Shown: piece by piece, positions 11,980 through 36,303 of the stretch
How the letters are laid out: the number at the start of each line of letters is the position of its first letter
How positions within the stretch are numbered: position 1 is the stretch's first letter
From: a virus
Taxonomy: Duplodnaviria > Heunggongvirae > Uroviricota > Caudoviricetes
Reading direction: 5' to 3' (one strand)
IMG/VR virus record: IMGVR_UViG_2531839662_000025
DNA: 58,745 nt
Notes under the pieces: generated by a model
Seen by the model: only the letters and a program-made list of their open reading frames with translations
Databases searched by the model: none
Told to the model about the DNA's origin: nothing
Position numbers and translations under genes: made by a program

Positions 11980-12309
11980 TCAGTTTCCAGAACCAGGCAA
12001 CATTGTAGAGTCGTTTCCGGAGGTGCTTCCCGTCTCCGACTGGGTAAAAAAACGCAGGATCTGCATGCTGGTCTTAAAAATATCCAGTTTTGCCATCTGC
12101 GCCGCCGATGAACGCGGGATCCCCGCCAGCAGCGGGATATATTTCAGTGCCACCTGGCTGTCCAGTTTTATACTGCCCTCACCGGAAATAATGAAAGGAA
12201 AACCCAGGGCCTCGATTTCGTCATACGTGGGTTCACGCAACTCCAGCACATGCAGCGTTTCGTTATGCGCTGTCACCGGTTTTTTTAAAACAATTTCTGT
12301 CACGCTCAT
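11980..12309 (-). CDS. tail assembly chaperone (Mu gp41-like)
   Basis: 109-aa ORF between tail tube and tape measure. Confidence 0.5.
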   Translation of the reverse strand: MSVTEIVLKKPVTAHNETLHVLELREPTYDEIEALGFPFIISGEGSIKLDSQVALKYIPLLAGIPRSSAAQMAKLDIFKTSMQILRFFTQSETGSTSGNDSTMLPGSGN

Positions 12310-12665
12310 TACTGATATCCTCCCTCTTCGCCGTGAAATTCAAGATCTGCCGTACCTTCTTCGGCATTATGGTTTGCTTCGCCATGCAGCCAGGCCGCCG
12401 AAAGCACATACACCATGCCGTTTGCCAGCTCGGCAGTAATCGTCATCTGGTCTGAGGTGGTAATTTTGTCGACCGGAAAATTTTTGGGCACTTTAAACGT
12501 GCCCTTAACGTAAGGTGACCGCCAGGTCTCCTTGTAATCCACATCACCAGCCATGCCGACGACATCATCCCGGACATTGGTGTTCATCGGCACTTCAATG
12601 CCACCTGTCAGCGATAACTGCTGACCATCCACTTTAAAAAAACAGGTTCCGGCGATCTTTGCCAT
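12309..12665 (-). CDS. tail tube protein
   Basis: 118-aa ORF immediately after sheath gene. Confidence 0.7.
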   Translation of the reverse strand: MAKIAGTCFFKVDGQQLSLTGGIEVPMNTNVRDDVVGMAGDVDYKETWRSPYVKGTFKVPKNFPVDKITTSDQMTITAELANGMVYVLSAAWLHGEANHNAEEGTADLEFHGEEGGYQ

Positions 12666-14161
12666 TATGCTGACTCCTCTGAATACTGGAGACGGAACTG
12701 GTTAACCACCGCAAAGACACGTAACTGGTTAACATAATCCGGCGGGAACAGCGTGTTCAGTCGGTTCGGGTTATCCGCATCACGTTCAACTATCAGATAC
12801 TGTTTAAACAGATCGTAATTTTCCACAATACCGGCACGCTCCATCTGACGATATGTCGCCAGAAGCTCCCCTTTGATAACGGCAGGAGTAACAATCGCCT
12901 GCCCAGGACCAAAACGGGTACCATCATTTGCCAGCTTGTGGCGTCCGTACTTGCTTGTGATGACCGATTTCAGTTTGCGAAGAACATATGCGCTGGTATG
13001 CAGTGTTTCACTGTCCAGATAGCTGTTGTCTGCCACGCCATATGCATTCTTTTTGTATGTGGTTACGGAACGCTGGATCCGCAACGTGCCGCCTTCCACA
13101 TAAGCCGTCGCCACGCCGTGAGATAAAAGGGTCTGCTGCTCTGTCATGATGAATCGCTTACCTTTCGGTGCCGGAAGCATCCCCACCAGTTCCCCCGTCT
13201 GTGTCGGACGGGCCGGATCATTGCGGATAAATACCGCTTCACGGGCAAGGCGACTGGCAACCAGTTCATCGACAGGCGACTGGGTTTCTTTTTCGTAACC
13301 GGCAAGCGTGATATGTTGCTGATTATGCATATCTCCGGCATCAACCAGCTCTGACAGCGTTCCCAGTTTTGCGGTATAGACATGCCCGTATAACTGGCGC
13401 GCATAACTCCAGCGACCGCTGCTGTCATTCATTTCGGTCATCATCATATTGATGGAGGCGGCATCGTTGAACGGCAGACCGATAAAGTCGAATGCCTCAT
13501 CGCCCATAGCAGCAACAGCGGCAGTAAGATCAGGCGCGCCACTACCCGCAGTTCCGGCTTCCGTCACAACCTGAAGCCCCGCAGGCAGAATCTCACCACC
13601 ACCAGAACCATAATAATTCAGGCAGACAGGCAACTCGTTACCATACAGCCCCTTATGGCGGGCAGTCAGCGTCACCACACCTGCATCAGATGACGCCGCA
13701 AACGGCAGGGTGATAACCCCGTTTACCGCTTCCTTAATCGCGGTGGCAACCGCAGTAGCATCATCGCCATTCACCACAGGCACCTGTACACGGTAGCGCC
13801 CGACATACAGACTCAGGGTGCCGCTTTCCTCTGCTTCTCCGGTAACTGTCACCCTGACCGTCGCCGCCGCCCCTTTGGCTTCCGGTACTGCAATAACATA
13901 CAGTTCACCGAAAGGATCTGTCTGACGGTAGACGTCAACCATACGCGCCAGCTGGCTCCCGGCCCCACAAATCTGACGGGCATAATCTGCCGACGGCATC
14001 AGCACCAGGCTGTTAACCTCAATGGCGGCATCGTTGCTGGCATGCCCGATCAATAATGCAGGCGCGCTGGTCACTGCTGTATTTGCCGCAGAATTGTCCA
14101 TCTCGGCGTAAAACAACGGCACCAGCGTATTCGACGGAACAGCACTAAAACTTATTGTCAT
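12665..14161 (-). CDS. contractile tail sheath protein
   Basis: 498-aa ORF; Mu L-like sheath size and position. Confidence 0.85.
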   Translation of the reverse strand: MTISFSAVPSNTLVPLFYAEMDNSAANTAVTSAPALLIGHASNDAAIEVNSLVLMPSADYARQICGAGSQLARMVDVYRQTDPFGELYVIAVPEAKGAAATVRVTVTGEAEESGTLSLYVGRYRVQVPVVNGDDATAVATAIKEAVNGVITLPFAASSDAGVVTLTARHKGLYGNELPVCLNYYGSGGGEILPAGLQVVTEAGTAGSGAPDLTAAVAAMGDEAFDFIGLPFNDAASINMMMTEMNDSSGRWSYARQLYGHVYTAKLGTLSELVDAGDMHNQQHITLAGYEKETQSPVDELVASRLAREAVFIRNDPARPTQTGELVGMLPAPKGKRFIMTEQQTLLSHGVATAYVEGGTLRIQRSVTTYKKNAYGVADNSYLDSETLHTSAYVLRKLKSVITSKYGRHKLANDGTRFGPGQAIVTPAVIKGELLATYRQMERAGIVENYDLFKQYLIVERDADNPNRLNTLFPPDYVNQLRVFAVVNQFRLQYSEESA

Positions 14162-14319
14162 GATTCTTTAGCCTTATCCTGTTTAACACGTACCACATCA
14201 CCCGCCGCTATACGGCGGAGCCAGTAGCTGTTTTCTTCCACATTTCGCCCGTCAGAAGGCAAAAGGTCTCCACGGGCAGGGTCAGGAACCGACCGCCCTT
14301 TCAGGGGTTTCACAAACAT
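14158..14319 (-). CDS. small conserved phage protein (53 aa, Mu gp38 position)
   Basis: Hand-translated ORF absent from track (under 60 aa): MFVKPLKGRSVPDPARGDLLPSDGRNVEENSYWLRRIAAGDVVRVKQDKAKES; stop overlaps sheath start (ATGA). Confidence 0.45.
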   Translation of the reverse strand: MFVKPLKGRSVPDPARGDLLPSDGRNVEENSYWLRRIAAGDVVRVKQDKAKES

Positions 14320-14328
14320 GAGGGACTC

Positions 14329-14892
14329 TTATTTCTGAGGGAAACTCATTTCCAGATGGTGCTCAAAGTCACCATCCGGGCCAGTACCAGGATCAATGTA
14401 ATCCACATCAATACTCAGCAGAGATAAATCCGGCAGAGCATTCACGTCCTCTGCCTGTCGCGTGTCTTCTTCCGTGATTTCATACTTCGCCGTAAAATCA
14501 AACTGGTAATACAGTTCGTAACGGTTCAGATCCAGCAGCGTGCCACCGGCATAAACAATCTCGCCCCCCTGCGGGTCCGGCATCCACCCAAGCAGGGCTT
14601 TCCAGAGTTCTCTACGGACATCATGAACGGCGTCATAGGCTGCCCACTGCCCTTTTTCATCACGCTCATTGCTGAGCACAACAATAACGGAGAAGCCTTC
14701 TGTCAAATCCTGCCAGTAATCGGTCTGTGATTTTTGTTCCCCCGGCGCATCGTCAGAGGGGACAACATAGGCAGCAGGCAGACGCAGTTTTCCGGCATCA
14801 GGGATCGCCTTAAACTGCGCTGCACCACCAACACGATTCTCAAAACGCGGGCATCGCTCACGCAACGCCGCAATTATTGTTGTCAGTTTCAT
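14329..14892 (-). CDS. virion/tail-completion protein (Mu gp37-like)
   Basis: 187-aa ORF between neck genes and sheath; function inferred from position. Confidence 0.45.
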   Translation of the reverse strand: MKLTTIIAALRERCPRFENRVGGAAQFKAIPDAGKLRLPAAYVVPSDDAPGEQKSQTDYWQDLTEGFSVIVVLSNERDEKGQWAAYDAVHDVRRELWKALLGWMPDPQGGEIVYAGGTLLDLNRYELYYQFDFTAKYEITEEDTRQAEDVNALPDLSLLSIDVDYIDPGTGPDGDFEHHLEMSFPQK

Positions 14893-15452
14893 TTATGCTT
14901 CCTTTTTACCGGACGTAACGAACACTGCAACTCACGGGACAACAGTTCCTGCGTCCAGTGACGCCGCCGCTCAATAACGTCAGCCATAAAGTTATTACGC
15001 GGAGCCAGCCGGAAAGCCGAAGAATGGTGCTTCTTCTGCCGCTTATCCTTTTTATCCATTCCATAAGCTGAATGGCGAACGCCGTAATACAGAAATGCCG
15101 GATAATAGGGTGCGCCTTCAGGGAAACGGCGATTCCCCTGCCCGTTTTTCTGGTTAGGAGAAATTTTCACCATCAGTCCGGGGCGACGCGTCGTTTTTTT
15201 GGGAACGTAATAACCGATGGAGCGGGCCAGACGCCCGGTCTGATATCCCGGGTTCTCTCCCGGACCGGATCGTCCGCGTTTAATCACCAGACGTCTTGCG
15301 TCGCGCATATAGACGCGCCCGATCTGCACAAATGCCCGACGCAGACGGGCGCGATTAAACTCCAGCTCCTTTGGTTGTTTAAAGTCGACGTGTAAAAATG
15401 CTGTCTGATTCATGGCATTCACCCCGTCGTCGCGCTGTACGCAGTTCTTCAC
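14889..15452 (-). CDS. neck protein (HK97 gp10-like)
   Basis: 187-aa basic ORF in head-tail joining cluster. Confidence 0.45.
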   Translation of the reverse strand: MKNCVQRDDGVNAMNQTAFLHVDFKQPKELEFNRARLRRAFVQIGRVYMRDARRLVIKRGRSGPGENPGYQTGRLARSIGYYVPKKTTRRPGLMVKISPNQKNGQGNRRFPEGAPYYPAFLYYGVRHSAYGMDKKDKRQKKHHSSAFRLAPRNNFMADVIERRRHWTQELLSRELQCSLRPVKRKHK

Positions 15453-15828
15453 ATTCCAGCAATAAAAAACGCCGCTGACCGTTCAGGTCGCGTATTCGCC
15501 GGATCCGGTACTCCTGACCGTAATAAACCACCTCATGATCTGCCGTGATGTCGTGACGGAAACGGATCGTAAAATAATGCGTAACGATATTTTCTGTCTG
15601 CACTGAGCCCTGATAAGCGGCAGCGCCTGGCTGAGCCACCTTTGCCCAGACATCAAACGACTCCGTATATGTCGGCTCCGTACCAAAATCAGCGGTGGGT
15701 TCATCCACCCGAAGGCGGATCTTTATTCGGCGATTCAGCTCTCCGGGATCCGGTAAAAGGTAAGTGGCACTGGTCTGACTTTGCCTGATTTTCATAGCGG
15801 GACAATCCTGTAAGGGCCAGCAAGCCAT
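15379..15828 (-). CDS. head closure / head-tail adaptor protein
   Basis: 149-aa ORF following gp6-like connector. Confidence 0.5.
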   Translation of the reverse strand: MACWPLQDCPAMKIRQSQTSATYLLPDPGELNRRIKIRLRVDEPTADFGTEPTYTESFDVWAKVAQPGAAAYQGSVQTENIVTHYFTIRFRHDITADHEVVYYGQEYRIRRIRDLNGQRRFLLLECEELRTARRRGECHESDSIFTRRL

Positions 15829-16115
15829 CTGAAACTCATTGGCGTTTCCAGCTTCTCCACATCGGTGATCGTTGAGCGATTTTCATAAAAATGACTGACC
15901 AGCATCAGCATTGCCAGACGAACATCATCAGTCAGATGCATCCCGTCAGGATCGTCTTCCGGAATCGTCTCTTCCGGTGCATACAACTTCCTGTTCAGGT
16001 ATGTCTCTGTTCTTTTCTGTACCGCCTGTGCCAGCAGTTTCAGAAAATCGCCGTCACTGTACAAACCATCATCGAGCCGGAGGTGAGATTTAATTTCCTC
16101 TTCTTTCAGGAGCAT
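15792..16115 (-). CDS. head-tail connector protein (gp6-like)
   Basis: Track ORF 15792-16136 uses a TTG start; a strong AGGAGG then ATG at 16115 is the likelier start. Confidence 0.6.
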   Translation of the reverse strand: MLLKEEEIKSHLRLDDGLYSDGDFLKLLAQAVQKRTETYLNRKLYAPEETIPEDDPDGMHLTDDVRLAMLMLVSHFYENRSTITDVEKLETPMSFRWLAGPYRIVPL

Positions 16116-16161
16116 ATTTTCCTCCTGTGCCCGCAATTACGCGGGCACAAAAAAAACCGCA

Positions 16162-17385
16162 TTACGCAGCGGCTTTCTGGCGGGTTGCAGCCCCAATTTT
16201 CATCAGCTTAATCGCCTGAGAATCCACCAGCATACCGCCGGTTCGCTTGGTGGTATAAAAACCCACAAACGGTTTATTGGTGTACGGATCGCGCAGGATA
16301 CGGGTACCGATGCGATCAACGATGGTATAGCCACGTTTGAAGTTACCAAACGCAATGGCTTTTGCATCGGCAGCAATATCCGGCATCTGTTCATTCTCAA
16401 CGATGCCATACCCTGCCAGAGAAGAAGGCTGACCCAGCTCAATACCCGGACGCCACAGATAATTTCCGTCGTTATCCTTCAGCAGACGAATGGCAAACAG
16501 GCTGCTGTTGTTCATCATGAACTTCGCGCCGCTGCGATGCGCCTTGCGCAGGGTGTAAATCAGTTTAATGATCGCATCGGCAGTCACGCCGGAAGCCGCA
16601 CCGGAAGCAATGTGCTGAAGTTTGCCAAACGCACGGGTCTTGTCATCTTCATCGGTGGACTCGTAAGCCAGAAAACCTTTTGGTTTTTTGCTGCCGTCGC
16701 CACTGGTAAAGGCAATTTCTTCCTGTTCGGCAAATTCCAGCGCCAGCTCACTGTTGATCCAGTCTTCCACATTGAAGAAAGCGTCATCGAGCATTTTCTG
16801 GGTGGCCTGCGGGTTGCCGTAGATTTCCCCCATAAAGGGTTCAATCAGACCTAGTTTTGATGTGGCGGTTTCCGGACGAGCATCCGTTTCCCCCACCCAT
16901 CCGGACGTTGTGCCGCCCAGATTTACCAGTTTTTTATAATCCGAGCCACCGAGGGTGATCACAGTGGCTTCCTGGCGCATCACCACCTCATCTTTCAGCA
17001 ACGTCAGAATAGTGCGGTCCAGTTCTTCCGGAATGGCATAACCACCATCTTCATCATTGCCCACCTGCATCGCCTTACGCTCAAGCTCACGCAGGCCATC
17101 TTCACGCCCCTTACGCATAAATCCGATAAACGCTTCTTTATGTTCACCGGCAACTTTATTTTGCGTGCCGCCTGCCGGACGCTTGACTTCAGCCAGTTCA
17201 GCTTCAAGATCGCTTTTCAGATTTTCCAGTTCAGCCAGTTTTCCGTTGAGGGTTTCCACTTCACCAGCAAGTTTTCCCTTTTCCTGCTCGATCGCGTCGA
17301 TACGTTTGTCGTTTTTTGCCTTAAAATCGTCAAACTTCCGCTGCAACTCCTGCGCGACCTGTTCCACATCTTTAACATCAGCCAT
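16162..17385 (-). CDS. major capsid protein (HK97 fold)
   Basis: 407-aa ORF with N-terminal coiled-coil delta-like domain, downstream of prohead protease. Confidence 0.85.
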   Translation of the reverse strand: MADVKDVEQVAQELQRKFDDFKAKNDKRIDAIEQEKGKLAGEVETLNGKLAELENLKSDLEAELAEVKRPAGGTQNKVAGEHKEAFIGFMRKGREDGLRELERKAMQVGNDEDGGYAIPEELDRTILTLLKDEVVMRQEATVITLGGSDYKKLVNLGGTTSGWVGETDARPETATSKLGLIEPFMGEIYGNPQATQKMLDDAFFNVEDWINSELALEFAEQEEIAFTSGDGSKKPKGFLAYESTDEDDKTRAFGKLQHIASGAASGVTADAIIKLIYTLRKAHRSGAKFMMNNSSLFAIRLLKDNDGNYLWRPGIELGQPSSLAGYGIVENEQMPDIAADAKAIAFGNFKRGYTIVDRIGTRILRDPYTNKPFVGFYTTKRTGGMLVDSQAIKLMKIGAATRQKAAA

Positions 17386-17941
17386 TATTTTCTCCTGGTT
17401 AAAATTTAAGATTTTTCAGTGCATTCAGTGCGGCATCCACATCCTCAGCATCACGCAGGGATAAAGCGCCATATCCCCCGGCCATGAATGCTTTGGCCTG
17501 GGTTCGCGAGAGTCCAACATCGCGCAGGACCCGCTCAATAATTTTCTGATCAGGGATCTCCCCACGCGCCAGCGCATTTTTCACATCGCTGATGCGTGCT
17601 TCATCATTGGAAGGAAACGTCACCAGACTGACCTCCCACAGGTCGATCTCTTTCAGCAGGAATACCCCTTTTTCCCGGTCGTACTCCCAGTCTTTCAGGA
17701 TGTAGCCAATAGAAAGGCCGGTTAAAGAACCGGCCTTCATATGGGCATGTGCACGTTTTGCCAGGGGATCATCATCAACGAGTAATCGCCCCCTGACATA
17801 AAGCCCGACATCATCTTCTTTCATTTCGGTGTACACACCGATGGGCTCATCCATGCGGTGCTGCCAGAGCAACGCAGGCAGCGCCTTTTTTTCGCTCCAT
17901 TTCTGGAGTGTTGTGGTAAAGGCACCGGGGACCACCACATC

Positions 17942-18102
17942 ATCGTGGCTGTCCTTAACACCAAAAACAGAACCGTAACCTTACAAACTTCCCCGGAATC
18001 ATCGTACTAACTTCGTATAATGTATGCTATACGAAGTTATTACGATCGTGGCTGTCCTTAACACCAAAAACAGAACCGTAACCTTCAAACTCCCCGGAAT
18101 CA
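17942..18102. repeat. ~60-bp direct duplication of protease coding sequence flanking the lox site
   Basis: 17942-18001 and 18045-18102 are copies of the same sequence; upstream copy has two single-base insertions. Confidence 0.85.
18007..18040. other. loxP recombination site (33/34 match to P1 loxP)
   Basis: CTAACTTCGTATA-ATGTATGC-TATACGAAGTTAT: exact loxP spacer (inverted orientation) and right arm, one mismatch at outermost base of left arm. Confidence 0.85.
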
Positions 18103-18129
18103 CTGACGGATTTCAGGTTCAGCGGTATA

Positions 18130-19371
18130 TCAAGACGCTGTTTTGTCTGCATCTCCACTCTCCTTTTTCTTACCGTTGTCATCGCCAGCAGAGGGACTGG
18201 TGGTCATGTTCATCGGAGTCAGATACACATCACCGCCCGGTCGGGGATTCATATCCTCCAGATCACGGCAGTCATTAGGGGAATAAATCCCCCAGTTGAT
18301 CCCCGTGGCATACGCTTCAAAGCGGGATTTCATGTCGCCACGCAACAATGCTCCGGCATTAAATTTGGCGTAAAATTTTCCCTGCTTGCTCTCCCTGACC
18401 AGCCCTGTATTGATCCGCTGCTCAATACGGGTCAGATACGGCACAAGGGAATAGTTAATGAAACCAAGCCCCAGCTCTTCAATATTGTTGAAGGTGGCAC
18501 GATCGGTGTTCTGCACCATATGCAGCGGCACGCGGAACATGCGACAGATTTCTTCCAGCTGAAACTTGCGGGTTTCCAGGAACTGGCTGTCCTCGGCATT
18601 CAGTGCCACCGTTTTCCAGTCCAGCCCCATTTCCAGAATCATCGGACGATGAGAGTTTCCCAGCCCGACATGCCGTTCCTCAAAATCCTTTTTGATACGC
18701 GCATAAGCCTGGTCAGAAAGTTGTTGATCCGTACGCAACACACCGGATGTTACCGCGCCATTGCCAAACAATCTGGCACCATGCTCCTCGGTTGCCGCTG
18801 CCAGTGAAATGGCCTCGCGCGCATATGCAATGGGATTCAGACCGACAAGTCCATCCAGCGTCAGGGTACGCACATGCCAGATTTCATTCTGGGTCAGCAC
18901 ATCCACAGAACCATCCGGAAACGTCACCTGATAAACCGGCTGCCACTGGCTGTTCAGCTTCGGTTCCACACAGCCCGGATCTATCGGAAGAAGCTCCACC
19001 ACTTCCCCCAGTGCCTTTACCTTGTAGGCGTAAAAATTACCCCGCAGACACAGGCAGACGATAACCAGTTCCCAGAATTCCTGCGGCGTCATGTAGCCAT
19101 TGGGTTTTGCCGAAATCAGCTTATGCAGTCGTTCATCCACTGCCCGTGTTTTAAGAGTGCCGGTGATTTTGTAGAGGCTGCAGGGCAGCATACCAACAGA
19201 CTCCGCCAGCACCCTGACGCAGGAATACACCGCCGTCAGCCGCATGGCCCGCTGACTGCTGATCCGCTTTCCGGTATAGGTGTCGTATGACAACCCAAGT
19301 TCTTCCGCAAGTATCCCGGGCGTTGTGACGGGGGTATTATTTTTACGTTGAAAAAGCCCCTGGAAAAACAT
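18130..19371 (-). CDS. portal protein (HK97 family)
   Basis: 413-aa ORF upstream of protease and capsid genes. Confidence 0.85.
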   Translation of the reverse strand: MFFQGLFQRKNNTPVTTPGILAEELGLSYDTYTGKRISSQRAMRLTAVYSCVRVLAESVGMLPCSLYKITGTLKTRAVDERLHKLISAKPNGYMTPQEFWELVIVCLCLRGNFYAYKVKALGEVVELLPIDPGCVEPKLNSQWQPVYQVTFPDGSVDVLTQNEIWHVRTLTLDGLVGLNPIAYAREAISLAAATEEHGARLFGNGAVTSGVLRTDQQLSDQAYARIKKDFEERHVGLGNSHRPMILEMGLDWKTVALNAEDSQFLETRKFQLEEICRMFRVPLHMVQNTDRATFNNIEELGLGFINYSLVPYLTRIEQRINTGLVRESKQGKFYAKFNAGALLRGDMKSRFEAYATGINWGIYSPNDCRDLEDMNPRPGGDVYLTPMNMTTSPSAGDDNGKKKESGDADKTAS

Positions 19372-19564: not shown

Positions 19565-20290
19565 TTAAAGCGAGCGAATACCAACGCTGACCAGATGCTC
19601 AGACAGATCCGGCTCCGGTTCACCGCCATTGACCAGCATCCGGCTCATTGCTGTAAACATCGCAACAGGACCGTCGATTTTGGCTTCCGGCGTGGATTTA
19701 TTCGGGAAGATATTGTTGTTTTTGTCCGGTTTCACCGTAACGTTAGACATCATCCAGTTCATGACCGGGTGATTGCTGTGGTGGAAACGTCCGGCATAGA
19801 CCAGTGATTCCGTTTCCTTCATGGCCTCTGACAGATTGCGGACCGTCTGCGGAACTTCCACCAGCGGTATACCTTCTTCAGCCAGCGCCAGACTGAACTG
19901 CATTGCGCTCCACGGGTCAAATCCCAGTTCCCTGAGGTTTTCACCGCCAATCCATTCCAGTAAGTCACTTTTTATCTGAGCATGATCGATAACATCACCA
20001 TCCGTCAGGATGAGCTTATCCATCTCCGCCCACTTCCGGTAAAGTTCTGCCTGCTGCCGCGAGCATCGCTCCAGCCGTCCTTCCGGAAGCCAGAATTTAA
20101 AATCAGCATGAACATGTCCGTTATCGGTTCGCCAGAGTTTTGCCGCCGCACAGATATCAATCTTATGAGCAAGGTCGACGCCGACCCACATGGGATATGT
20201 TTTCAGCTCATGTTGTGGAGCAATGTATTCGCACTTCTCCCACTTAATCATATCCATCCAGGCAGATTCGGCAGTGACCCACACATTCAT
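19565..20290 (-). pseudogene. terminase large subunit, C-terminal (nuclease) fragment of the host prophage
   Basis: 241-aa ORF aligns by eye with the C-terminal third of the intact TerL at 20817-22478; N-terminal two thirds lie 15 kb away at 35283-36303. Confidence 0.8.
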
Positions 20291-20293
20291 GTG

Positions 20294-20309
20294 TTTGGTA
20301 AGAATATTT
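20294..20309. repeat. putative att core (left junction of satellite)
   Basis: TTGGTAAGAATATTTC; imperfect direct repeat of TTGGTAAAAAAATTC at 35276-35290, located at the terL break point. Confidence 0.5.
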
Positions 20310-20816: not shown

Positions 20817-22478
20817 TTACACACCATCAAACGTCGCAAGCCGCTCTTTGTGGCTGTCGCTCATATCGAATGCAAATTCCTCATGCTCTGCCTGGAATGT
20901 GCCAAACGCCATCAGCGCCGCAACGCTCGGGTCTATCTTGTTGGATGATTTTTTCTTGTTCGGCTTGATATTGGCGTTCGCGTCACTCTGCATCACAACA
21001 TTACTCATTGACCAGGCCAGCACCGGATCACCACGATGCACAATCACCTTCCGGTTAACAAAAACTTCGAACGATTTCGCCGCCGGACTGAAACGAAGGT
21101 ACGTTTGCGGGAACGGCTCCACCTCAAATCCTGCGCCCTGTAGCTGCGTCCTCAGGTGCGTGGCGTTCCATGTATCGAAACCCACCAGCCTGATATTGAA
21201 ATTCTCTGCATCCGCCATGATGTCATCACGGATACGGTCATAATCAATGCAGTCACCCGGTGTTGTGCGTATCCAGCCCGCCTTTACCCACTGGCGATAG
21301 ATGGCGCGGTTTTTATTGGCGGGGTTCTGTAGCTGAAATTCCGGCAGATAGTGACGGGAAACCAGCATAATCTTTTTACCGACCGGAAAGGCATAGCACA
21401 CGCTGGAAATATCGCTGGTTGATGATAAGTCCAGCCCCGCGTAGCACTCCTGCCCGTATAAATCCGCCTCCGCGAACGTTCCGGCGCACTCCGCCCATGC
21501 ACCGTTACCCATCCACGGCGTGGCCCCCTGACACCAGATATTGAATCGCTTGGTGAGCATTTCCACCCACTGCGACGGAATACCCCGCGCTTTCTGGATG
21601 GTTGAGGCCAGTTTTTCACGATCGACGGAAACATCGATATTGGGATTCGCCTTTATCCACATCGCCGGATCGTCAACCTCGCTTTCATCATCCAGCTCGT
21701 AAATCAGCACGAACATGGATTCGTTCACCTCTTCACCATCCAGTATCTGGCAGCAATAGTCGTAGTGTTGTTTACAGGCTGAAACAACGTTGCTCCCCGA
21801 TGTGGTGATGGCAAATAATAACCCCTCCGGACGCGCCCCCATTCCCAGTTCAAGCGCGGAATAAACCCCGTTGTCAGGGTGCAGGTGATATTCATCCACA
21901 ATGGCAAGACTCGGGTTTGTACCTTCAATGGTTGCCGCTTTTGCTGCCAGTGGCTTTAACAGGCTGTTGGTTTTCGGGTGTATCACCTTGTGTGCCTGAA
22001 TATTTACCCGCTTTCGCAACGGTCGGGATAAAAGGCACATCTGACGCGCATCATCAAACACGATCCGCGCCTGATCACGACTCACGGCGGCGGTGTAAAT
22101 ATCCTGCTGCCCGTTTTCCATAACCAGAAACCAGTTAGCCAGGATAGCGGCGACCGTGGATTTGGCATTTTTTCGCGGCACTTCAATGAATGCGCTGGTG
22201 TATTTGCGCCGTCCGGTGGCCTTAACCTTAAAGCCCAGGATGCACGCAAAGGCGAACTGCTGCCACGGCTCCAGCTCAATGGGGCTACCGCGCATTGCGC
22301 CTTTTACGTGCGGACACACCCTGGAAAAGGCAATAAACCGCTCCACGACCTCCGGATCGAACGTGTAAAGGGGGTTTTCAAGGTCAGAAAAATACCGTTT
22401 AACGGCCTGTTTCAGTCGTTTACAGGCCGTAATTTTGCCGTTTTTTACGCCTTCTGCGTACTCATGCCAGGCGGTCAA
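20817..22478 (-). CDS. terminase large subunit (satellite-encoded, intact)
   Basis: 553-aa ORF with ATPase and nuclease halves. Confidence 0.85.
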   Translation of the reverse strand: MTAWHEYAEGVKNGKITACKRLKQAVKRYFSDLENPLYTFDPEVVERFIAFSRVCPHVKGAMRGSPIELEPWQQFAFACILGFKVKATGRRKYTSAFIEVPRKNAKSTVAAILANWFLVMENGQQDIYTAAVSRDQARIVFDDARQMCLLSRPLRKRVNIQAHKVIHPKTNSLLKPLAAKAATIEGTNPSLAIVDEYHLHPDNGVYSALELGMGARPEGLLFAITTSGSNVVSACKQHYDYCCQILDGEEVNESMFVLIYELDDESEVDDPAMWIKANPNIDVSVDREKLASTIQKARGIPSQWVEMLTKRFNIWCQGATPWMGNGAWAECAGTFAEADLYGQECYAGLDLSSTSDISSVCYAFPVGKKIMLVSRHYLPEFQLQNPANKNRAIYRQWVKAGWIRTTPGDCIDYDRIRDDIMADAENFNIRLVGFDTWNATHLRTQLQGAGFEVEPFPQTYLRFSPAAKSFEVFVNRKVIVHRGDPVLAWSMSNVVMQSDANANIKPNKKKSSNKIDPSVAALMAFGTFQAEHEEFAFDMSDSHKERLATFDGV

Positions 22479-23547: not shown

Positions 23548-23846
23548 CAGTACACCCCCACATCACGATAAACCGACCAGAGCGCAGAAATAGCCATAGG
23601 CAGTTCAGACTGCTCCACTGGTGAAACTGCTTCCCTGTTCTCGTACAGGAAAGCGATGTACATCAGGCAACCAACACGCATTGCCGGGGTAAATTCCAGC
23701 CCGTCTTCAAAACGTTTCCCGATATGCTTCTGGCAGGCTTCCAGCGCCGCATCGGTATACATTTTCAGAAGTTCGCCTTCTCCGGAAAAGTCATCAAGGC
23801 GAAGATGTGCCCTGACCTCATCAGGTGTAATTTTTTCTTCACTCAT
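23547..23846 (-). CDS. head-tail connector protein (gp6-like)
   Basis: Track ORF 23547-23927; likely start MSEEKIT at 23846. Confidence 0.6.
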   Translation of the reverse strand: MSEEKITPDEVRAHLRLDDFSGEGELLKMYTDAALEACQKHIGKRFEDGLEFTPAMRVGCLMYIAFLYENREAVSPVEQSELPMAISALWSVYRDVGVY

Positions 23847-25053
23847 CTTTTTCACCTTTAATTTCCACCGTCTGCTTCCATGCCTGGCTGAATTCGTCGC
23901 CACCTTCGCGCGGCGGCATCCCCTCACGTTCGCGGGCTTCGTTCGGATTCATGATCCCGTTCTTAATCCCTTTCTCATACGTGGCGTAACGCTCGGTAGG
24001 GGTGGCGCGCAGTAAATCGGCTGAATCAAACTCAACCAGATAACGGGTACCAGGTACGGGAGAAGCCACCAGCAAAGCGGCCTTGATTTGCTGTTCGAAG
24101 TTCGCCAGCCACGGACGCATTGTCATAGTCAGAAACGCGCGGCTTGCCTCACTGAAATTGCTGTAGGTGCTGTTGCTGTATTCCTGAAGAAAAATCGGCG
24201 ACACGTTGAACATACGGGCAATGTCTTCAATGGAGAAGCGACGGGAGGCCAGCCATTCCGCATCCTGGTTACTCATCCCCAGTTGCCTGTAATCCATGCC
24301 CCCTTCAAGGATTGGCGTTTTTCCGGCATTTTTCGCCCCCTTATAGCGTTCCAGAGCATCTAATGCCTGTTTACCTTTCACGCCGTCCAGCCATTCGCCT
24401 GACGTGATAATCCCTGCCGCCATCATGCCATCTTTCATAATGCTGGCTCCGTGGCGCTGTTGAGCAAGGCCAAGCCCCAGCGCCTCACGGCAAATCGTGA
24501 CAGGGGAGCGCCCCAGAAAGCCATCATCCGAGGCATAGCGGAGATGCAGAACTTCTTCCTGTAAATACGTGCGTACCGTTCCTGTATAGGGTTCGGTGAT
24601 GGTATAGCGGTATTTGTGTGCGCCTGTGCGTTCCGGTACAACACACCCCGGCGCATAAGGATGAAGTGATTTTGGCTGACCGTCCCGCCCCCACTCAATA
24701 ACCGCATAGGCGTTACCGTTCAGCAGGCAGTGACGCATCATTGTGCGTTTAAACTGGTAAGGTGTCTGGCACGAATTAGGCTGCTCATTCAGCAGAATAT
24801 CGACCGGGTGACTGTCCAGCCATTCCCGCGCCTCCCTGCCCTTGTCATTGCGTACCAGATACAGATAACACGGCATCGTGGCCACCGCCTCAGCGATGAC
24901 AGAAACCGCGTTCATCACAGCAGGCAATGATTCAGCCGTCCCGGCAGAAACATATTCTCCGGATCCGGTATTCGGTACGCCGGACAGCGCCAGAAAATCA
25001 TCAATGGACAGGTTACGCAGATCGCTTTTTTTACGACTAAAAGGCCACCACAT
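23839..25053 (-). CDS. portal protein (satellite-encoded)
   Basis: Track ORF 23839-25143; likely start at 25053 abutting protease stop. Confidence 0.8.
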   Translation of the reverse strand: MWWPFSRKKSDLRNLSIDDFLALSGVPNTGSGEYVSAGTAESLPAVMNAVSVIAEAVATMPCYLYLVRNDKGREAREWLDSHPVDILLNEQPNSCQTPYQFKRTMMRHCLLNGNAYAVIEWGRDGQPKSLHPYAPGCVVPERTGAHKYRYTITEPYTGTVRTYLQEEVLHLRYASDDGFLGRSPVTICREALGLGLAQQRHGASIMKDGMMAAGIITSGEWLDGVKGKQALDALERYKGAKNAGKTPILEGGMDYRQLGMSNQDAEWLASRRFSIEDIARMFNVSPIFLQEYSNSTYSNFSEASRAFLTMTMRPWLANFEQQIKAALLVASPVPGTRYLVEFDSADLLRATPTERYATYEKGIKNGIMNPNEAREREGMPPREGGDEFSQAWKQTVEIKGEKDE

Positions 25054-25054
25054 A

Positions 25055-25615
25055 TCACAACCCCGCCAGTTCAGCCCAGCGATGACGATTATTTCCTGTC
25101 GGGCGTAATTCAGGGTGCTGTGCAAACAACGAACGGTGGGCAATCTCCACGCCGGATTCGGGATAAGCAGGCATCGACGTTATCGTGATTTCACGGAGTT
25201 CTGCGGCGGTAACAGTGCGCAGATACGGTTTTTGCGCGATATTCCACTCTTCGCATAATGCGCGAAAGCCAAAGCTCATTCCTGTAATGTCGCCACGCTC
25301 CACCAGCGTAAGCACATCTTTTCCAAGCTGGGTATCAGGCGGTGTCAGTTCAAAACGTAGCCCGGTGTTGTCCTCAGTCAGTACCAGTGTTCCGGATTTG
25401 GTGCGCCCCAGCAGTCGGGTATAGTCATGCTCATACAGGCAGCGCACATCATTACCCGCCGCCAGATAGTCAGCAAAAGCCCCCGGCGTGAACTGTTCGC
25501 GGAATTCGTCCCAGATAATTTCTGAAAGGCTGTTCCAGCGAACGGCATAACCCACCAGTTTTTTATCGCTGGCGGTCAGTTCAGATGTACGGATTTCAAA
25601 ATCGGTATTTTGCAT
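25055..25615 (-). CDS. prohead protease (HK97 family, satellite-encoded)
   Basis: Track ORF 25055-25831; likely start MQNTDFEI at 25615. Confidence 0.75.
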   Translation of the reverse strand: MQNTDFEIRTSELTASDKKLVGYAVRWNSLSEIIWDEFREQFTPGAFADYLAAGNDVRCLYEHDYTRLLGRTKSGTLVLTEDNTGLRFELTPPDTQLGKDVLTLVERGDITGMSFGFRALCEEWNIAQKPYLRTVTAAELREITITSMPAYPESGVEIAHRSLFAQHPELRPTGNNRHRWAELAGL

Positions 25616-25664: not shown

Positions 25665-26810
25665 TTACTTGCCAGCCTGAATTTCCAGAATCTTGATGGC
25701 GTTCGAATCCACCACACCACCGCCCAGATATTTCTGGGTATAGATGTTAATGAATCCAGGTTCGCTGAAATCCAGACGGGTACGCGTACCGGTTTCATGG
25801 TCAACGATGAAATAACCGCGCTTAAAGTCACCTACTGCAATCACACCGTCCGGCATAAATTCCAGATATTCAACCGGAAGCCCCAGCAGAGAATCAGGAT
25901 CACCAGCCTGTAAACGATCGCGCCAGATGTAATCACCAGTGGCATTTTTCAGTTTTTGTGCGGAGGCGGCTGTATTTGAGTTCATCACCCATACAGCTTT
26001 TTTGCGGTACTTATTGCGCAGCGTAAATTTCAGGTCAATCAGCATGTCGGCGCTGAGACTGCCAGTAACTTTTTTCGTCTGGAGCGTACCGAAAGGACGG
26101 GTTTTGTCGTTATCCGCAGTGCGCGGAAAAGCCAGGAAACCTTTAGCTTTTTTCTCGCCATCACCGGAAACCAGATCCGTTTCTTCGGTATCAACGAAAG
26201 TGTCGCCAATTTCAGAAGATAACCAGCCCATAATATCGACTTCGGAAAAATCGATAATTTCCTGAGTGGTTTTCGGGTAAGCGTAGATCGGATACAGGCG
26301 GATACTGACTTCATTCAGTTTTGGTGTTGCCGTCTGGTTACGTGCCGCACCTTCTTCGCCGTGTTCAACGACCGCACCCCCGGCAGAAACCAATTGCTTA
26401 AATTCATTGCTGTGAATGGTTTTAACAGTACAGATTTTACGCATCACCGATTCATCAGAAAGCTGACGCATAATTTCTCTGTTCAGTTCCGGGATAACCG
26501 TATAACCACCATCAGCCGGGACACTGCCGGACAGGTTGCGGGTTTCCCCGGTCAGAATGTAAGAGCGCAGTTCGTCTTTGGTTATTTTCTCTTCGACGGA
26601 AACACCAGGCTGGTTACGTTCTTCATCAGCCACAGATTCGAGGCGGGAAATTTCTGTGTCGAGGGAATCGGCTTTTGCACGCAGTTCATCAAACTGTTTG
26701 CCCTCGTCATCGTTCAGGCTGCGGTTTTCACTGTCGGCTTTTTCCAGCAGGGATCGCATCTGGTTTTTCAGGGCGGTTTTTTGCTGGCGGAGTTCGATTA
26801 ATTTCTTCAT
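25665..26810 (-). CDS. major capsid protein (HK97 fold, satellite-encoded)
   Basis: 381-aa ORF with N-terminal coiled-coil; related in pattern to the host prophage MCP. Confidence 0.85.
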   Translation of the reverse strand: MKKLIELRQQKTALKNQMRSLLEKADSENRSLNDDEGKQFDELRAKADSLDTEISRLESVADEERNQPGVSVEEKITKDELRSYILTGETRNLSGSVPADGGYTVIPELNREIMRQLSDESVMRKICTVKTIHSNEFKQLVSAGGAVVEHGEEGAARNQTATPKLNEVSIRLYPIYAYPKTTQEIIDFSEVDIMGWLSSEIGDTFVDTEETDLVSGDGEKKAKGFLAFPRTADNDKTRPFGTLQTKKVTGSLSADMLIDLKFTLRNKYRKKAVWVMNSNTAASAQKLKNATGDYIWRDRLQAGDPDSLLGLPVEYLEFMPDGVIAVGDFKRGYFIVDHETGTRTRLDFSEPGFINIYTQKYLGGGVVDSNAIKILEIQAGK

Positions 26811-28843: not shown

Positions 28844-30964
28844 TTAATCTTCTGCCTCAGGCTGGAACATCAGCACGTAAAAAACATGCTGCTTCCCCCC
28901 AATTTTGCCGAGCGCCTTTTTCTTGTAACGGCGATCGTTACCCGCTTCCAGCATTCCGGCAGCACTCAACGCGCGGGCAAAGTGAGACGGATTAAATCCC
29001 TGTGCTATCTCACCCTCAAATACATGCGGGAACGTGTAAAAACGGAACTCGTCATCTTCGTTTCTGATACTCCCCTTTCTGTATCCGGCAAGCTCTTTAA
29101 TCGGTAAATCACGCTCGTCGGTGTTGGGCCACGGAAGGTATCTGCTGAATCCGAACGACGCTAAAAAAGCCTCTGCCTGTTCAACCATCTGTTTAAACTC
29201 CCTGTTACCCGTGCCGAACTCCTTCACCCAGGCATTAAAATTATGCTGAATGGCATCGCGGCACGCCTGAACATCCCAACCAGTAATATGGACGGAAAGC
29301 ACCAGCGCCGACTCCAGCATGGCGAATCGTTCCCCCACACGGTGAACCTGTTCGCCGTAACTCTCCGGTATCAGGTTGCGCCACCGTTCACGGCATGCCC
29401 TTACCGTATCCTTTGCCTCCTGCTGGTGGTCTGCCAGCCATTTAACCCATTCACGCCCCGCCGCCCCGTGATTTTCTGTCCAGGCATCCTTTAACGCGTC
29501 TGCGTGTGCCTTTCCGGTGCTGTATTCGTGAAACTGCGTGGCTTTTTCCATTGGCACGTTAAGCAGGCGGACAAGCTGCCCCGCCTTGACTTTTATCCCC
29601 TCCGTTTTGAGGAATGTCTCAACGTCCATTTCTCCGGTGCTGATTGCCACCGTGCGCCAGTGTTTGATCTCCCTGTTGCCGCCGTCCTTCGCCCCCTGTA
29701 ATTTCCCCGAACCGTTAAACAGCGTATAAGCCGACGTGGACACTTCCCGCGCGTTTCCGGCCTGACCTATTTCATCTAGGGGTAATAGCCCGTCATTGTG
29801 CGCCTCTGCCTCGTTGGCGATGCCTAACGCTGTACCGTACCAGGTCAGCCGTTGCGCGTCCGGCTCTCCCCATAAACTGGATGCGATGTTCTGTGTGGTG
29901 GTTTTCCCTGCCGATGACTGTTCGAAAAGATGTACCCCGAAGCCGTCAGCGCCCACCAGCCCGATTAATGGTGCAGATAACGATACCGCCACACCCAGCA
30001 TCATGGACGGATTACCACCAGCCAGCCGCGCAACGGTATCGCGCCAGCCCTCCGCCGTTCCTGCCACGGAATAACCATTAACAGCAGCCGTTTTTCCGGT
30101 AAACAGGACTGGCTTTTCGCAATCACCAATGACCGAACCGTCCGGCATGATGTACGCGCCAAAATGCCAGCCCGTTGTTGTGCTTAACTGCCATTCCTCA
30201 TGGTTTCCGCTTAACTGCATCCAGTCAGCCAGGATAGCCCTGTATTTGCCGTTGGTTGTCACGTTCAGGCCGTGGTCTTTCAGCAACCGCCAGCCGTCAC
30301 GGTCGCCAATGCCACCACATGGGATCGCCATTGTGATGACTTCATGGTTTGCTGGCTTTTTCCAGCGCATCACGCGGTAATGCTCTTTACCGATCGTCCC
30401 CGTTCCCAGTAGTTCAAGCGGAGAACATAACCACGTCTCAGGCCGGATAATTTCGCCTGACTGCTTGTCCACTTTTGGCGTTACCCAGAAAACACCATCG
30501 GCGCGGCTTTCAACGCGGGGCTTTAATTCATCATCGCCCTGGCTTTCTGTGATTTTTTTCTTTAAGGGCAACACCAGACTTTCCCCGCGCTCGTATTCGT
30601 CTTTCAGTCGGGCAAGCTGTGGTGTCCAGTCCTCCAGTAAATCGCCGTTCTCGTCACAAAAACAGGCTTCCTTAACACCAGCCACTGCCAGCAGGGTTTC
30701 AATCTGTAGCGCCAGTTTGTCATCCAGTTTTCCGGCACGTCTGACGATGGCGCGTGACCGACCATCATCCACAATACGCAGGTTTTCCAGATTACCCAGG
30801 TCACGCCGTCCGAGATAAACAGGTGGTATTTTGTCGCCGCGCTTTCTGGCTTCTCCGCCCTGCATGTAATGCTCTGCATGGCTGTATGCGTCATCCCCCG
30901 CAAAAATCACTGCATCCTCGCCTTTATCTTTCGGTAACAGTTTTACGTTCGGTGCCAGTTTCAT
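28844..30964 (-). CDS. primase/helicase (P4 alpha-like replication protein)
   Basis: 706-aa ORF with Walker-type NTPase region (SSAGKTT). Confidence 0.7.
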   Translation of the reverse strand: MKLAPNVKLLPKDKGEDAVIFAGDDAYSHAEHYMQGGEARKRGDKIPPVYLGRRDLGNLENLRIVDDGRSRAIVRRAGKLDDKLALQIETLLAVAGVKEACFCDENGDLLEDWTPQLARLKDEYERGESLVLPLKKKITESQGDDELKPRVESRADGVFWVTPKVDKQSGEIIRPETWLCSPLELLGTGTIGKEHYRVMRWKKPANHEVITMAIPCGGIGDRDGWRLLKDHGLNVTTNGKYRAILADWMQLSGNHEEWQLSTTTGWHFGAYIMPDGSVIGDCEKPVLFTGKTAAVNGYSVAGTAEGWRDTVARLAGGNPSMMLGVAVSLSAPLIGLVGADGFGVHLFEQSSAGKTTTQNIASSLWGEPDAQRLTWYGTALGIANEAEAHNDGLLPLDEIGQAGNAREVSTSAYTLFNGSGKLQGAKDGGNREIKHWRTVAISTGEMDVETFLKTEGIKVKAGQLVRLLNVPMEKATQFHEYSTGKAHADALKDAWTENHGAAGREWVKWLADHQQEAKDTVRACRERWRNLIPESYGEQVHRVGERFAMLESALVLSVHITGWDVQACRDAIQHNFNAWVKEFGTGNREFKQMVEQAEAFLASFGFSRYLPWPNTDERDLPIKELAGYRKGSIRNEDDEFRFYTFPHVFEGEIAQGFNPSHFARALSAAGMLEAGNDRRYKKKALGKIGGKQHVFYVLMFQPEAED

Positions 30965-33681: not shown

Positions 33682-33915
33682 TCAGGGTTTCCATTCACCT
33701 TTTACCCATTCCAGCACCTCAGATAAGCGCCAGACTTTTGTTTGTGGGCCAATACATATTTTTCGTGGAAATTTTCCTTCCTTTTCAAGTAACGATCTGT
33801 GTCTCCTGCCAAGAGCGGTTAACCATGCACATTCATCTTCCTTAATCATCCTGTCGATTGTTTCATCATTTTCAAGTTCTTCACGCGTAACTATTTGAAT
33901 CATTACTGTCACCAC
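33682..33915 (-). CDS. AlpA-family regulator / excisionase-like
   Basis: 77-aa HTH ORF next to integrase. Confidence 0.55.
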   Translation of the reverse strand: MVTVMIQIVTREELENDETIDRMIKEDECAWLTALGRRHRSLLEKEGKFPRKICIGPQTKVWRLSEVLEWVKGEWKP

Positions 33916-35104
33916 TAATTTGCTTATTCAGATAGTCGTACCACCAGTTCATAGCTTCTTTTTTTCTGTCCATATACTGGCTTCTGTTATAAACCCCGGC
34001 AACACCGCCTAATGTGTGCCCAAGCAACTGTTCAACCACATTATGTTCAAAACCATGATCACTTAGTTTTGTGGCAAACACTCTTCGCATATCATGCGCC
34101 GTCCATTTCTCCGAGTGTTTCATCCTTTTCCATGTCTTACCGATAGTTACGCTTGCCGTACACTGACGCATATCAAACCCAATCACATTTTCTTTGTTAC
34201 CTGTTATTTTTTTTAACGTAACTAACCAGTTAAACATGCCATCAGGAATCGGTCTGATTATTTCCCTGCCATTTTTGCTATGATCAGCGGGAACGCGCCA
34301 TAATTTCTTATCAAAATCCCACTCTACCCAGGACGACAGTAATACTTCTGACAGTCGACAACCAAAAACTACCAGGAAACGTAAAATAATTCGGTTTTCA
34401 TATGATAATTCGTGATTGTCATAATCAGTATTAATACTTCGCCATAAATCTCTGATTTCATCATCTGTTAAAACCCTGCTTCTTCGCGCAGACTTTTTTC
34501 CCACATCACAGACCTCAAGATCATCAATTTCATGACTAATCGCGTATTTTCTTACCCTACAAAATTTAAGCGCCTGTTTTGATATACGCAACAAAGCTCC
34601 GGCCTGTACAGGTGCTACTTTTTTTATTTTGTCAAAACACTTAATCCACATAGATATAGAGCAATCACTAAGTGGTACATGACCAATCACCGGATAAATA
34701 TGTTTACCAAAGCACTGCCTGATATGTTCTGCTCCCCTACGCTTATCCATTGCATAATTATCAAGCCAGTATTCAAGTGCCTCACGAACGGTAACAGGTT
34801 GCAAGGTGGCTTCCCGTTCAATTTTTATCTGAATCCGTGGATCTCTGCCCTCCGCAAGCCAGGTTCGACACTGATCGCGCATCTCTCTCGCTGATTTGAG
34901 ACTCAGATCAGGATATTTTCCAAGTGTCAGCCAGATGGGCGCGGTTCCCCTTCCCGCCAGTCTGTAAAAGAAAACAAAACTAACACATCCGTATTTACTG
35001 ACCCGTACCGAAAGCCCGTTACCATCAGCGATGGTTTCCTGCCTCTCACTCCTGCGTCCAAGCAGGGAACGAAGTTTTTTATCGCTCAGTTTGTTTAGCG
35101 CCAT
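33881..35104 (-). CDS. tyrosine integrase (P4-type)
   Basis: Track ORF 33881-35140; likely start MALNKLSDKKL at 35104; P4-type N-terminal arm-binding pattern and C-terminal catalytic region. Confidence 0.8.
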   Translation of the reverse strand: MALNKLSDKKLRSLLGRRSERQETIADGNGLSVRVSKYGCVSFVFFYRLAGRGTAPIWLTLGKYPDLSLKSAREMRDQCRTWLAEGRDPRIQIKIEREATLQPVTVREALEYWLDNYAMDKRRGAEHIRQCFGKHIYPVIGHVPLSDCSISMWIKCFDKIKKVAPVQAGALLRISKQALKFCRVRKYAISHEIDDLEVCDVGKKSARRSRVLTDDEIRDLWRSINTDYDNHELSYENRIILRFLVVFGCRLSEVLLSSWVEWDFDKKLWRVPADHSKNGREIIRPIPDGMFNWLVTLKKITGNKENVIGFDMRQCTASVTIGKTWKRMKHSEKWTAHDMRRVFATKLSDHGFEHNVVEQLLGHTLGGVAGVYNRSQYMDRKKEAMNWWYDYLNKQISGDSNDSNSYA

Positions 35105-35124
35105 GTGATTTATAACCCGTTTTT

Positions 35125-35145
35125 GCAATACACAGTGCAATACAC
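35125..35145. repeat. arm-type repeat GCAATACACAGTGCAATACAC
   Basis: Direct repeat of the motif at 20377-20397. Confidence 0.5.
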
Positions 35146-35275
35146 AAATGATGAAAACAGCCAGAACCTTCCAGAAAAAACAAAAACGACGAACAAGAAA
35201 AAATCTTTTTCTTTCATTTGGTTACTAAAAAAATCAGGACAGGTCGCACTGTTGTTACGGCGTGATGTTACTTTC

Positions 35276-35290
35276 TTGGTAAAAAAATTC
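35276..35290. repeat. putative att core (right junction of satellite)
   Basis: TTGGTAAAAAAATTC at the point where the host terL reading frame is lost. Confidence 0.5.
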
Positions 35291-36303
35291 ACCCGCGCAG
35301 AGACCTGCTCCTTCGCTTTTTTCGCCAGACGACGCAGATCATCCCAGCGTTTACAGATGCCCAGGCCAGGATTCGCTTTCTGCCAGACCGTTTCATCAAA
35401 CGGATCATCTCCCTCATCGAGCGTGTAAATGATCGCAAAGTAGGAGTCGTCTTTTACCGCGCCCTCCACGTCGCTGTTATAGCCTCGCAATACCTTAATG
35501 GCGTAATCGCGCTGCTCGTAGCAAATCCCTTCCTTGTTAAAGCCAGCCGTGGTGATGCCAAATAACAGAGACTGCAGACGGGCACCGGTTGCCGTTTCCA
35601 GAACGTCCCACACGTCACGGGTTTTATGAGCATGCAGCTCATCAATAATGGCGCAGTGGATGTTCAGACCGTCCAGGTTGTTTGCATCCGAGGAAAGCGG
35701 TTCAAATTTTGATGCGCTCTGCTCCTGGTAAATCGCCAGCTTGTTGAAATCAAACAACCGCCCGAGTGTCGACCGGGCTTTTCTGACCATATTTTTGGCG
35801 TCTTCAAACACAATTCTGGCCTGGTCACGCGTGGTTGCGGCTGAATACACCTCAGCACCGCCTTCACCATCTGCCCCCGTCATATACAGGCCGATACCCG
35901 ATGACAGGGTTGATTTTGCGTTTTTACGGGCGACTTCGTTGTACGCCGTCCGGAACCGGCGCACCATCACCGGACGTCCGCTGCCATCGCTGCGTATGAC
36001 AACTTCCCCGGTCTCTTCATTGACCAGCGGAATGACAAAACCAAAAATATTAATGAGGATAAATACATGCCAGTCCATCAGTTCAATGGGCTGGCCTGCC
36101 AGCGCCCCTTTTACATGGGGCACAAATTTGTAGAAATTCAGGATGTGCTGCGCACGGGGTTCACTGAAATAAATCCCCCGCTCTTCGCCGTACTTCAGAT
36201 CATCAAGAAAACGCTGGCAGGCCAGACGGACAAATTCGCCAGCGACAATTTCTCCTGCAACAACACGTTCGGCGTAGCGGATCCCGTCAGCCACTTTTGC
36301 CAT
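35283..36303 (-). pseudogene. terminase large subunit, N-terminal (ATPase) fragment of the host prophage
   Basis: Track ORF 35110-36303: first ~345 aa are TerL-like, then the frame runs into satellite sequence and becomes low-complexity. Confidence 0.8.

Follow-up and report, generated by a model that had tools for sequence, protein, structure and literature searches.

Locus and host prophage

In the prophage found in the window (the whole analysed stretch of viral DNA, 58,745 nt in length), the head and tail genes correspond to those of the Stx2e phage phiP27, with 98.5% identity in the capsid/connector region and collinear phiP27 blocks over the rest of the structural region. The structural genes lie on the minus strand, and plus-strand genes are absent around the junction studied here, i.e. 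the 46-nt spacer between the stop codon of the major capsid gene and the head-tail connector gene (Table 1). The phiP27 counterpart of the capsid gene is L40 (a 1.8-kb stretch around the gene is 98.5% identical in DNA), and that of the connector gene is L41, designated 'head-tail adaptor Ad1'. In phiP27, a Q-like antiterminator is located upstream of one long late operon, which includes the stx, lysis, head and tail genes.

Table 1. Features of the capsid-connector junction and its flanking genes (positions in the window)
Feature	Position	Strand	Details
Major capsid protein gene, HK97 type	16162..17385	-	407 aa; Pfam Phage_capsid, E=3.2e-81
Hairpin h1	16156..16173	-	5' arm GCCGC (16173-16169), 8-nt loop UGCGUAAU, 3' arm GCGGU (16160-16156)
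Capsid stop codon TAA	16164-16162	-	sequence
T8 (U8) run	16149..16156	-	sequence; 3' tail of h1; last U pairs with A16126 as the outermost h2 pair
Hairpin h2	16126..16149	-	UGUGCCCGC / GUAAUU / GCGGGCACA; 9 perfect pairs, 6-nt loop, without 3' U-tract
Shine-Dalgarno (SD) sequence AGGAGG of the connector gene	16121..16126	-	abuts h2; 5-nt spacer to ATG; duplex with 16S 3' end -10.3 kcal/mol
Small third hairpin (predicted only)	16108..16126	-	AGGAG (SD) pairs with CUCCU (connector codons 2-3), AUG in loop
Head-tail connector gene, gp6-like	15792..16115	-	107 aa; Pfam Phage_connect_1, E=3.6e-9

Comparison with phiP27 also revealed several features outside the junction. The phiP27 stretch 17056-18972, which contains tRNAs and stx2e, is without a nucleotide match in the corresponding part of the window (~39147-40651; ~1.5 kb in place of 1.9 kb), and the prophage may therefore lack the Shiga toxin genes. 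The prohead protease gene contains a 103-bp tandem duplication (window 17942-18085, with perfect 41-nt copies at 17942-17982 and 18045-18085). Residues 1-44 of the phiP27 protease map to 18152..17985 and residues 20-216 to 17992..17402 in a different frame; thus, the gene is frameshifted, and the prophage probably defective. A terminator-like match on the minus strand (12052-12066; ATGCAGATCCTGCGT followed by TTTTTTA) was found close to the end of the phiP27 L46 equivalent, just before the tape-measure gene; it may not be a terminator but a slippery site at which a tail-chaperone frameshift occurs.

The large terminase gene of the prophage is split (window 19565-36303). Its N-terminal part (36303..35110, minus strand; 397 aa, with the TerL ATPase domain and nuclease profile positions 2-68) is separated from the C-terminal part (20290..19565, minus strand; 241 aa, nuclease profile positions 64-283) by ~14.8 kb (~20290-35110), so that 2.2 kb of phiP27 stand against 17.3 kb of the window. 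The genes of the insert encode (i) a tyrosine integrase (35140..33881), (ii) a Bro-N protein, (iii) a DUF927 primase-like protein (30964..28844), (iv) an HK97-type capsid protein (26810..25665), (v) an S78 protease, (vi) a portal protein (25143..23839) and (vii) a 553-aa TerL (22478..20817). This element looks like a capsid-forming satellite (PICI-like element) residing in terL of a phiP27-like prophage. A search for attachment-site repeats at its boundaries found no direct repeat of at least 16 nt.

Anatomy of the junction

Read on the minus strand, the junction runs from the capsid stop codon through TGCGG, T8, GTGCCCGC (16148-16141), GTAATT, GCGGGCAC (16134-16127), AGGAGG and AAAAT to the ATG of the connector gene (16115-16113). 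The first-pass annotation had given the order as capsid stop, T8, perfect hairpin, AGGAGG and connector start, which was borne out by the minus-strand sequence, with the omission of the 5 nt (TGCGG) between the stop codon and the T-run.

The two arms form a strong hairpin (h2), which lies 13 nt past the capsid stop, before the connector gene. Because U16149 pairs with A16126, its stem reaches 9 perfect pairs, G-C in 7 of the 9, and folding of h2 alone yields about -17 to -18.5 kcal/mol. With 9 perfect pairs and -18.5 kcal/mol, h2 has the G+C-rich stem-loop expected of a terminator, but not the U-rich tract 3' of the stem: the 8 nt that follow it (GGAGGAAA) contain no T, whereas T occupies 7 of the 8 nt that precede it. 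It had initially been concluded that the junction is not a canonical terminator, as the U-run precedes the stem. This holds for h2 itself but is incomplete. A second and weaker hairpin (h1), which the first-pass annotation had missed, is located upstream, and the U-run forms its canonical 3' tail; dismissal of a contribution from leaky termination was premature. Since T8 directly follows h1, it is not an orphan U-run in front of h2.

The capsid stop codon lies inside the h1 loop. The hairpin, predicted in both the minimum free energy (MFE) and centroid folds of the sense strand and flagged as terminator-like by a consensus scan, has the form of a stem-loop directly followed by a U-run (GCCGC-N8-GCGGU, then U7-8). 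Its energy is -7.8 kcal/mol alone (5 pairs including one G-U, 8-nt loop) and -12.6 kcal/mol when extended by pairing of AGAAA (16178-16174) with the U residues of the T-run; for comparison, 7-13 pairs and -10 to -20 kcal/mol were obtained for the clear stem and T-tail terminators located in other parts of the window. On the folding model, h1 with T8 is a weak but canonically shaped candidate intrinsic terminator.

The small third hairpin appears in the predicted folds of both the window and L205, a divergent viral contig described below. A terminator acting on the plus strand was rejected: in that orientation TTTTCCTCCT stands before the hairpin and A8 after it, in a region without plus-strand genes. 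A consensus scan for a connector promoter detected no sigma-70-like site near 16100-16200, and an Rfam scan of 15800-16500 at a permissive E-value returned only sub-threshold noise (best 11-19 bits versus gathering thresholds of 42-60).

Stability of the junction relative to chance

The description of the hairpin as stable was upheld not only by the energy of h2, but also by that of the junction as a whole. The 73-nt junction folds at -37.2 kcal/mol compared with -20.1 +/- 2.7 kcal/mol for shuffled sequences (z=-6.3), and none of the 200 shuffles was as stable. The junction is also the most stable 60-nt window of the 4.2-kb head-gene region (rank 1 of 405). The head/tail stretch (~2500-17700) contains only four hairpins that qualify as compact (a minimum of 7 bp and of 5 G/C), of which h2 is the strongest, and the capsid-connector spacer is the only sizeable hairpin-bearing spacer in the structural operon.

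The frequency of such palindromes was estimated from dinucleotide shuffles of the 58.7-kb window, searched for hairpins in which a perfect 8-bp stem containing 7 or more G/C encloses a loop of 3-8 nt. Two were observed, versus 0.31 expected per shuffled window. Single GC-rich 8-bp hairpins thus do arise in sequences of this size, but that h2 is a chance palindrome without function seems extremely improbable: the shuffle rate predicts only about 2e-4 in the 46-nt spacer, and in the relatives described below the stem is kept while loops and flanks change, and a hairpin recurs in the same place far above the background.

Junction haplotypes of close relatives

A set of close junctions, anchored on the capsid 3' end and drawn from E. 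coli genomes and IMG/VR contigs, comprised 16 distinct haplotypes of two types. Over a 371-nt junction query, E. coli UMNF18 was 100% identical to the window. Type 1, to which the window belongs, consists of T6-8, GTGCCCGC, a loop, GCGGGCAC and AGGAGG. Type 2, found in E. coli, consists of T5-6, A, TGCCCGC, ACAGTGTT, GCGGGCA and GGAG, and the connector that follows it is only 44% identical to that of the window. The T-run thus varies from T5 to T8 among the relatives.

The h2 stem is paired in all 16 haplotypes. Point changes were observed in its loop (GTAAT[T/G/C], ACAGT[G/A]TT, ACAGTG[T/C]T), and one haplotype (L059) carries a G-C to A-U double change in the stem that keeps the pairing. One further haplotype (L071/L179) is a hybrid, in which the type 1 5' arm is combined with the type 2 loop. 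In L204 (IMG/VR contig 3300023038_000043) the loop, CATTAC, is the exact reverse complement of the phiP27 loop GTAATG, and the stems are identical. Since the loop has been flipped at the DNA level, its sequence and orientation seem to be unimportant.

Formal covariation among the close relatives is thin, as it consists of the single double change in one sequence, which was matched by 62 of 500 shuffles, and most stem pairs are invariant. The contrast between loop and stem variation is, in turn, partly inflated by L204, because inversion of a loop is unable to alter a perfect palindromic stem. From comparison of the sequences, L205 is a better argument for selection on the h2 stem than covariation: its loop (GCTCCG) differs at 4 of 6 positions and its flanks are changed, but none of the 16 core stem positions is.

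Hairpin h1 is retained at -5 to -9 kcal/mol in 14 of the 16 haplotypes and nearly lost in the other 2; part of this retention reflects register shifts within GCN-GCN Ala codons. In L205, h1 lies wholly downstream of the stop codon (GCCGC-GAAAU-GCGGU followed by U8). Prophages of Proteus (L029 and L032, from P. vulgaris and P. columbae), whose capsid proteins are ~68% identical to that of the window, have the spacer core GCGG-T7-GTGCC in common with it; ~40-95 nt past the capsid stop they carry ACCGC-UUAAUU-GCGGU with U7, then GUGCC and a different 9-bp hairpin. In both L205 and the Proteus prophages h1 is more canonical than in the window. The layout of h1, U-run and h2 folds in all four versions (the window type, E. 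coli type 2, L205 and the Proteus prophages). As the Proteus spacer shares the core and folds as a cleaner terminator, this suggests that the tandem element is old and that the capsid ORF of phiP27 has extended into h1.

Distribution of post-capsid hairpins

The first-pass annotation had called for comparison with the equivalent junction in related phages. In addition to the close haplotypes, we examined 49 loci whose capsid proteins are 41-100% identical, from Shigella, Klebsiella, Serratia, Citrobacter, Erwinia, Yersinia, Morganella, Photorhabdus, Xenorhabdus, Gilliamella, Acinetobacter and other genera. Because ranking of 60-nt windows by MFE proved too unspecific in the relatives (median z about -1), we instead counted compact perfect hairpins, defined as having 6 or more bp and 4 or more G/C and lying no further than 60 nt past the capsid stop.

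Such a hairpin was present in 33 of the 49 loci, compared with a background of 0.05 per locus (per 66 nt) in the rest of the same loci. The stem sequences of the 33 hairpins are unrelated (about 20 different ones by our count), and their 3' flanks fall into three classes: (i) 5 or more T among the 8 nt that follow the stem, i.e. canonical terminators (11 loci), (ii) 4 T (8 loci) and (iii) 3 T or fewer (14 loci). Among the census loci, a T-run 5' of a strong hairpin was observed only in the window and phiP27. Seven Xenorhabdus loci (L034, L038, L041-L044 and L054) have spacers of 15-23 nt, of the form TAATTATCAGGAG...ATG, without a hairpin, which indicates that the element is dispensable in part of the family. 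With 33 of 49 loci carrying a hairpin and these Xenorhabdus loci none, a hairpin just after the capsid gene is the common state of this HK97-type capsid family, variable in form and losable. The clear comparative result is that the post-capsid hairpin, with or without a T-tail, is the rule in this family, and that the phiP27 group combines, in tandem, a weak candidate terminator with a strong hairpin.

The same data bear on the possibility that the palindrome is a DNA-level feature without RNA function, either maintained as a joint or linker where two mosaic modules meet or left over from past recombination. Prophages sharing ~92-99% identical capsid 3' ends lose nucleotide similarity at the U-run or h2 (H40-H48), the downstream connectors are only 44% identical, and both the hybrid haplotype L071/L179 and the exactly inverted loop of L204 agree with exchange at this point. 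We nevertheless regard this explanation as rather improbable. A recombination joint leaves unexplained why relatives carry unrelated hairpins at the same position, many of them with T-tails, and for this reason structure and function in the RNA are favoured over a shared DNA site. Moreover, the G-C to A-U double change preserves pairing and not sequence, and the G-U pairs of h1 exist in the sense-strand RNA only. Another reading, milder than the toggle discussed below but likewise improbable, is that the conserved post-capsid hairpins double as recombination joints for swaps of head/neck modules.

Possible translational control and RNA processing

The position of h2 directly next to the SD sequence raises the possibility of translational control, in which the U-run would have two alternative partners: the A-rich last capsid codons, which would lengthen h1, or AGGAGGA, which would lengthen h2 to 16 pairs and make the SD inaccessible. 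The hairpin between the SD and codons 2-3 is a further option, and the main effect of the element would then be on the frequency of connector initiation. The two conformers are nearly isoenergetic (-31.4 versus -30.4 kcal/mol), the local fold U7-h2-AGGAGGA has -23.3 kcal/mol, and the SD bases are predicted to be mostly paired (P(unpaired) 0.05-0.24 for 5 of 6). However, the pairs of the extension are all A-U or G-U, and in the type 2 E. coli junction the pairing of the U-run with the SD is poor by inspection (an A-G mismatch and 3 weak pairs). Across 39 junctions, pairing of the natural 5' flank with the SD did not exceed that of random segments of the same length and was usually lower; in the window it was 0.26 versus 0.20 for random segments (rank 0.28). 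We therefore consider translational control unlikely. An SD-masking clamp or switch across h2 was rejected as a family feature and is unsupported for the window, as partition-function pairing revealed no enrichment over the 39 junctions.

A more elaborate version, in which the U-run acts as a toggle that senses capsid translation, is very improbable. In the absence of a ribosome, the U-run would pair with the A-rich final capsid codons and leave the SD free; with ribosomes present, it would pair with AGGAGGA and hide the SD. If true, the ratio of connector synthesis to capsid translation would be fixed by this coupling, and h2 would serve as a clamp joining both partners.

A third possibility is that the junction is a processing site. 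RNase E typically cuts in U-rich single-stranded RNA that lies beside a stable stem-loop, and E. coli mRNAs are stabilised when a hairpin forms their 5' end. The junction does have a U-run beside a stable stem-loop; RNase E would cut the single-stranded U-run, h2 would become a 5'-terminal stem-loop protecting the connector/tail message, and the capsid message would end at h1. This also seems quite unlikely, since the U-run is mostly paired in the predicted ensemble (P(unpaired) of at most 0.06 for the first five U residues), the T-rich stretch of most relatives is located 3' and not 5' of the hairpin, and the message stabilised by such cleavage would be that of the low-copy genes, not that of the capsid gene.

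Proposed role of the junction

Judged from the comparative data, the junction is most likely an ordinary post-capsid attenuator or mRNA-end element of a kind common in related prophages. Our preferred reading, to which we give about an even chance of being correct, is that the two hairpins act in the sense-strand RNA to reduce expression of the connector gene and those behind it in relation to the capsid gene. A virion needs hundreds of capsid copies compared with about a dozen connectors. Late operons of phages have to supply hundreds of capsid subunits per dozen connector subunits from a single transcript, and to our knowledge the way in which temperate enterobacterial phages reach this ratio is poorly documented. 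We infer all effects on transcript ends, stability and protein ratios from structure and conservation.

According to this attenuator model, h1 with U8 would act as a leaky intrinsic terminator stopping a fraction of the polymerases at the U-run. Since the capsid stop codon sits in the h1 loop, a ribosome finishing the capsid ORF would melt h1, and the efficiency of h1/U8 would probably be cut further by ribosomes reaching the stop codon and by Q modification. Little or no termination may take place at h1 if the operon is subject to Q-type antitermination. As a Q-modified polymerase may ignore terminators, a post-transcriptional role for the hairpin would be sensible. On the read-through RNA, h2 would block 3'-to-5' exonucleases after downstream cleavage and so provide a stable 3' end for the capsid cistron, which would then outlast and outnumber the downstream message; by abutting the SD, h2 may also lower connector initiation.

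In its position, i.e. in the spacer that follows the cistron with the higher expression, h2 corresponds to a stabilising hairpin. Setting of the capsid-to-connector ratio via mRNA processing or stability is plausible, as it fits the positional conservation of the post-capsid hairpins and known analogues. Against the attenuator reading stand the weakness of h1, its near loss in 2 of the 16 haplotypes and the 7 of 49 loci (Xenorhabdus) without a hairpin. A literature search on phiP27, ST64B and SfV-type phages found no transcript mapping, and the terminators on the genome map in the SfIV paper are predicted only. As a small non-coding element of a kind already well known, it changes no concept.

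Comparison with known systems

The junction resembles canonical E. coli intrinsic terminators in the layout of h1 with U8, and 11 relatives have a clear hairpin with a T-tail at the same position. It differs from them in that h1 is short, weak and overlaps the stop codon, while h2 is strong but without a U-tail. An RNase III site of the T7 R-site type, which requires dsRNA of ~20 bp or more, was also considered and rejected, since the junction offers 9 Watson-Crick pairs, or at most 16-17 with weak U-A/U-G pairs.

Intercistronic 3' stem-loops, e.g. the REP hairpins in malE-malF, are known mRNA stabilisers. Like these, h2 is a stable hairpin downstream of the more expressed cistron that could block 3'-to-5' exonucleases and raise the upstream:downstream ratio. 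Unlike them, h2 occurs in a single copy in the window and matches no Rfam family, and stabilisation by h2 is putative; we also take it to lack the REP consensus. Membership of the REP/BIME elements was rejected, as the window contains one GTGCCCGC...GCGGGCAC hairpin and the stems of the relatives are unrelated.

Among phage elements, the T7 terminator Tphi is located directly after capsid gene 10, and reads drop past it (PMC6938266). The two cases share a stem-loop placed just after the capsid gene in co-transcribed structural genes, and Tphi favours the capsid message. However, Tphi is directed at T7 RNA polymerase and consists of one hairpin that ends in a U-rich tail; the junction described here would be transcribed by host RNA polymerase, probably Q-modified, and has a strong hairpin without a 3' U-tail, in front of which lies a separate, weak candidate terminator. 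The two are unrelated in sequence. Leaky phage terminators are known to tune expression (PMC9163698). In phages L and P22, a predicted terminator ends the procapsid module inside the late operon, for which partial termination has been proposed, its role being stated as unknown (PMC8022706). These terminators belong to another phage group, with a different capsid family and different sequences, and are single canonical hairpins with T-tails. What they have in common with the phiP27-type junction is their predicted Rho-independent nature and their location at the end of the procapsid/capsid module in a single antiterminated late operon.
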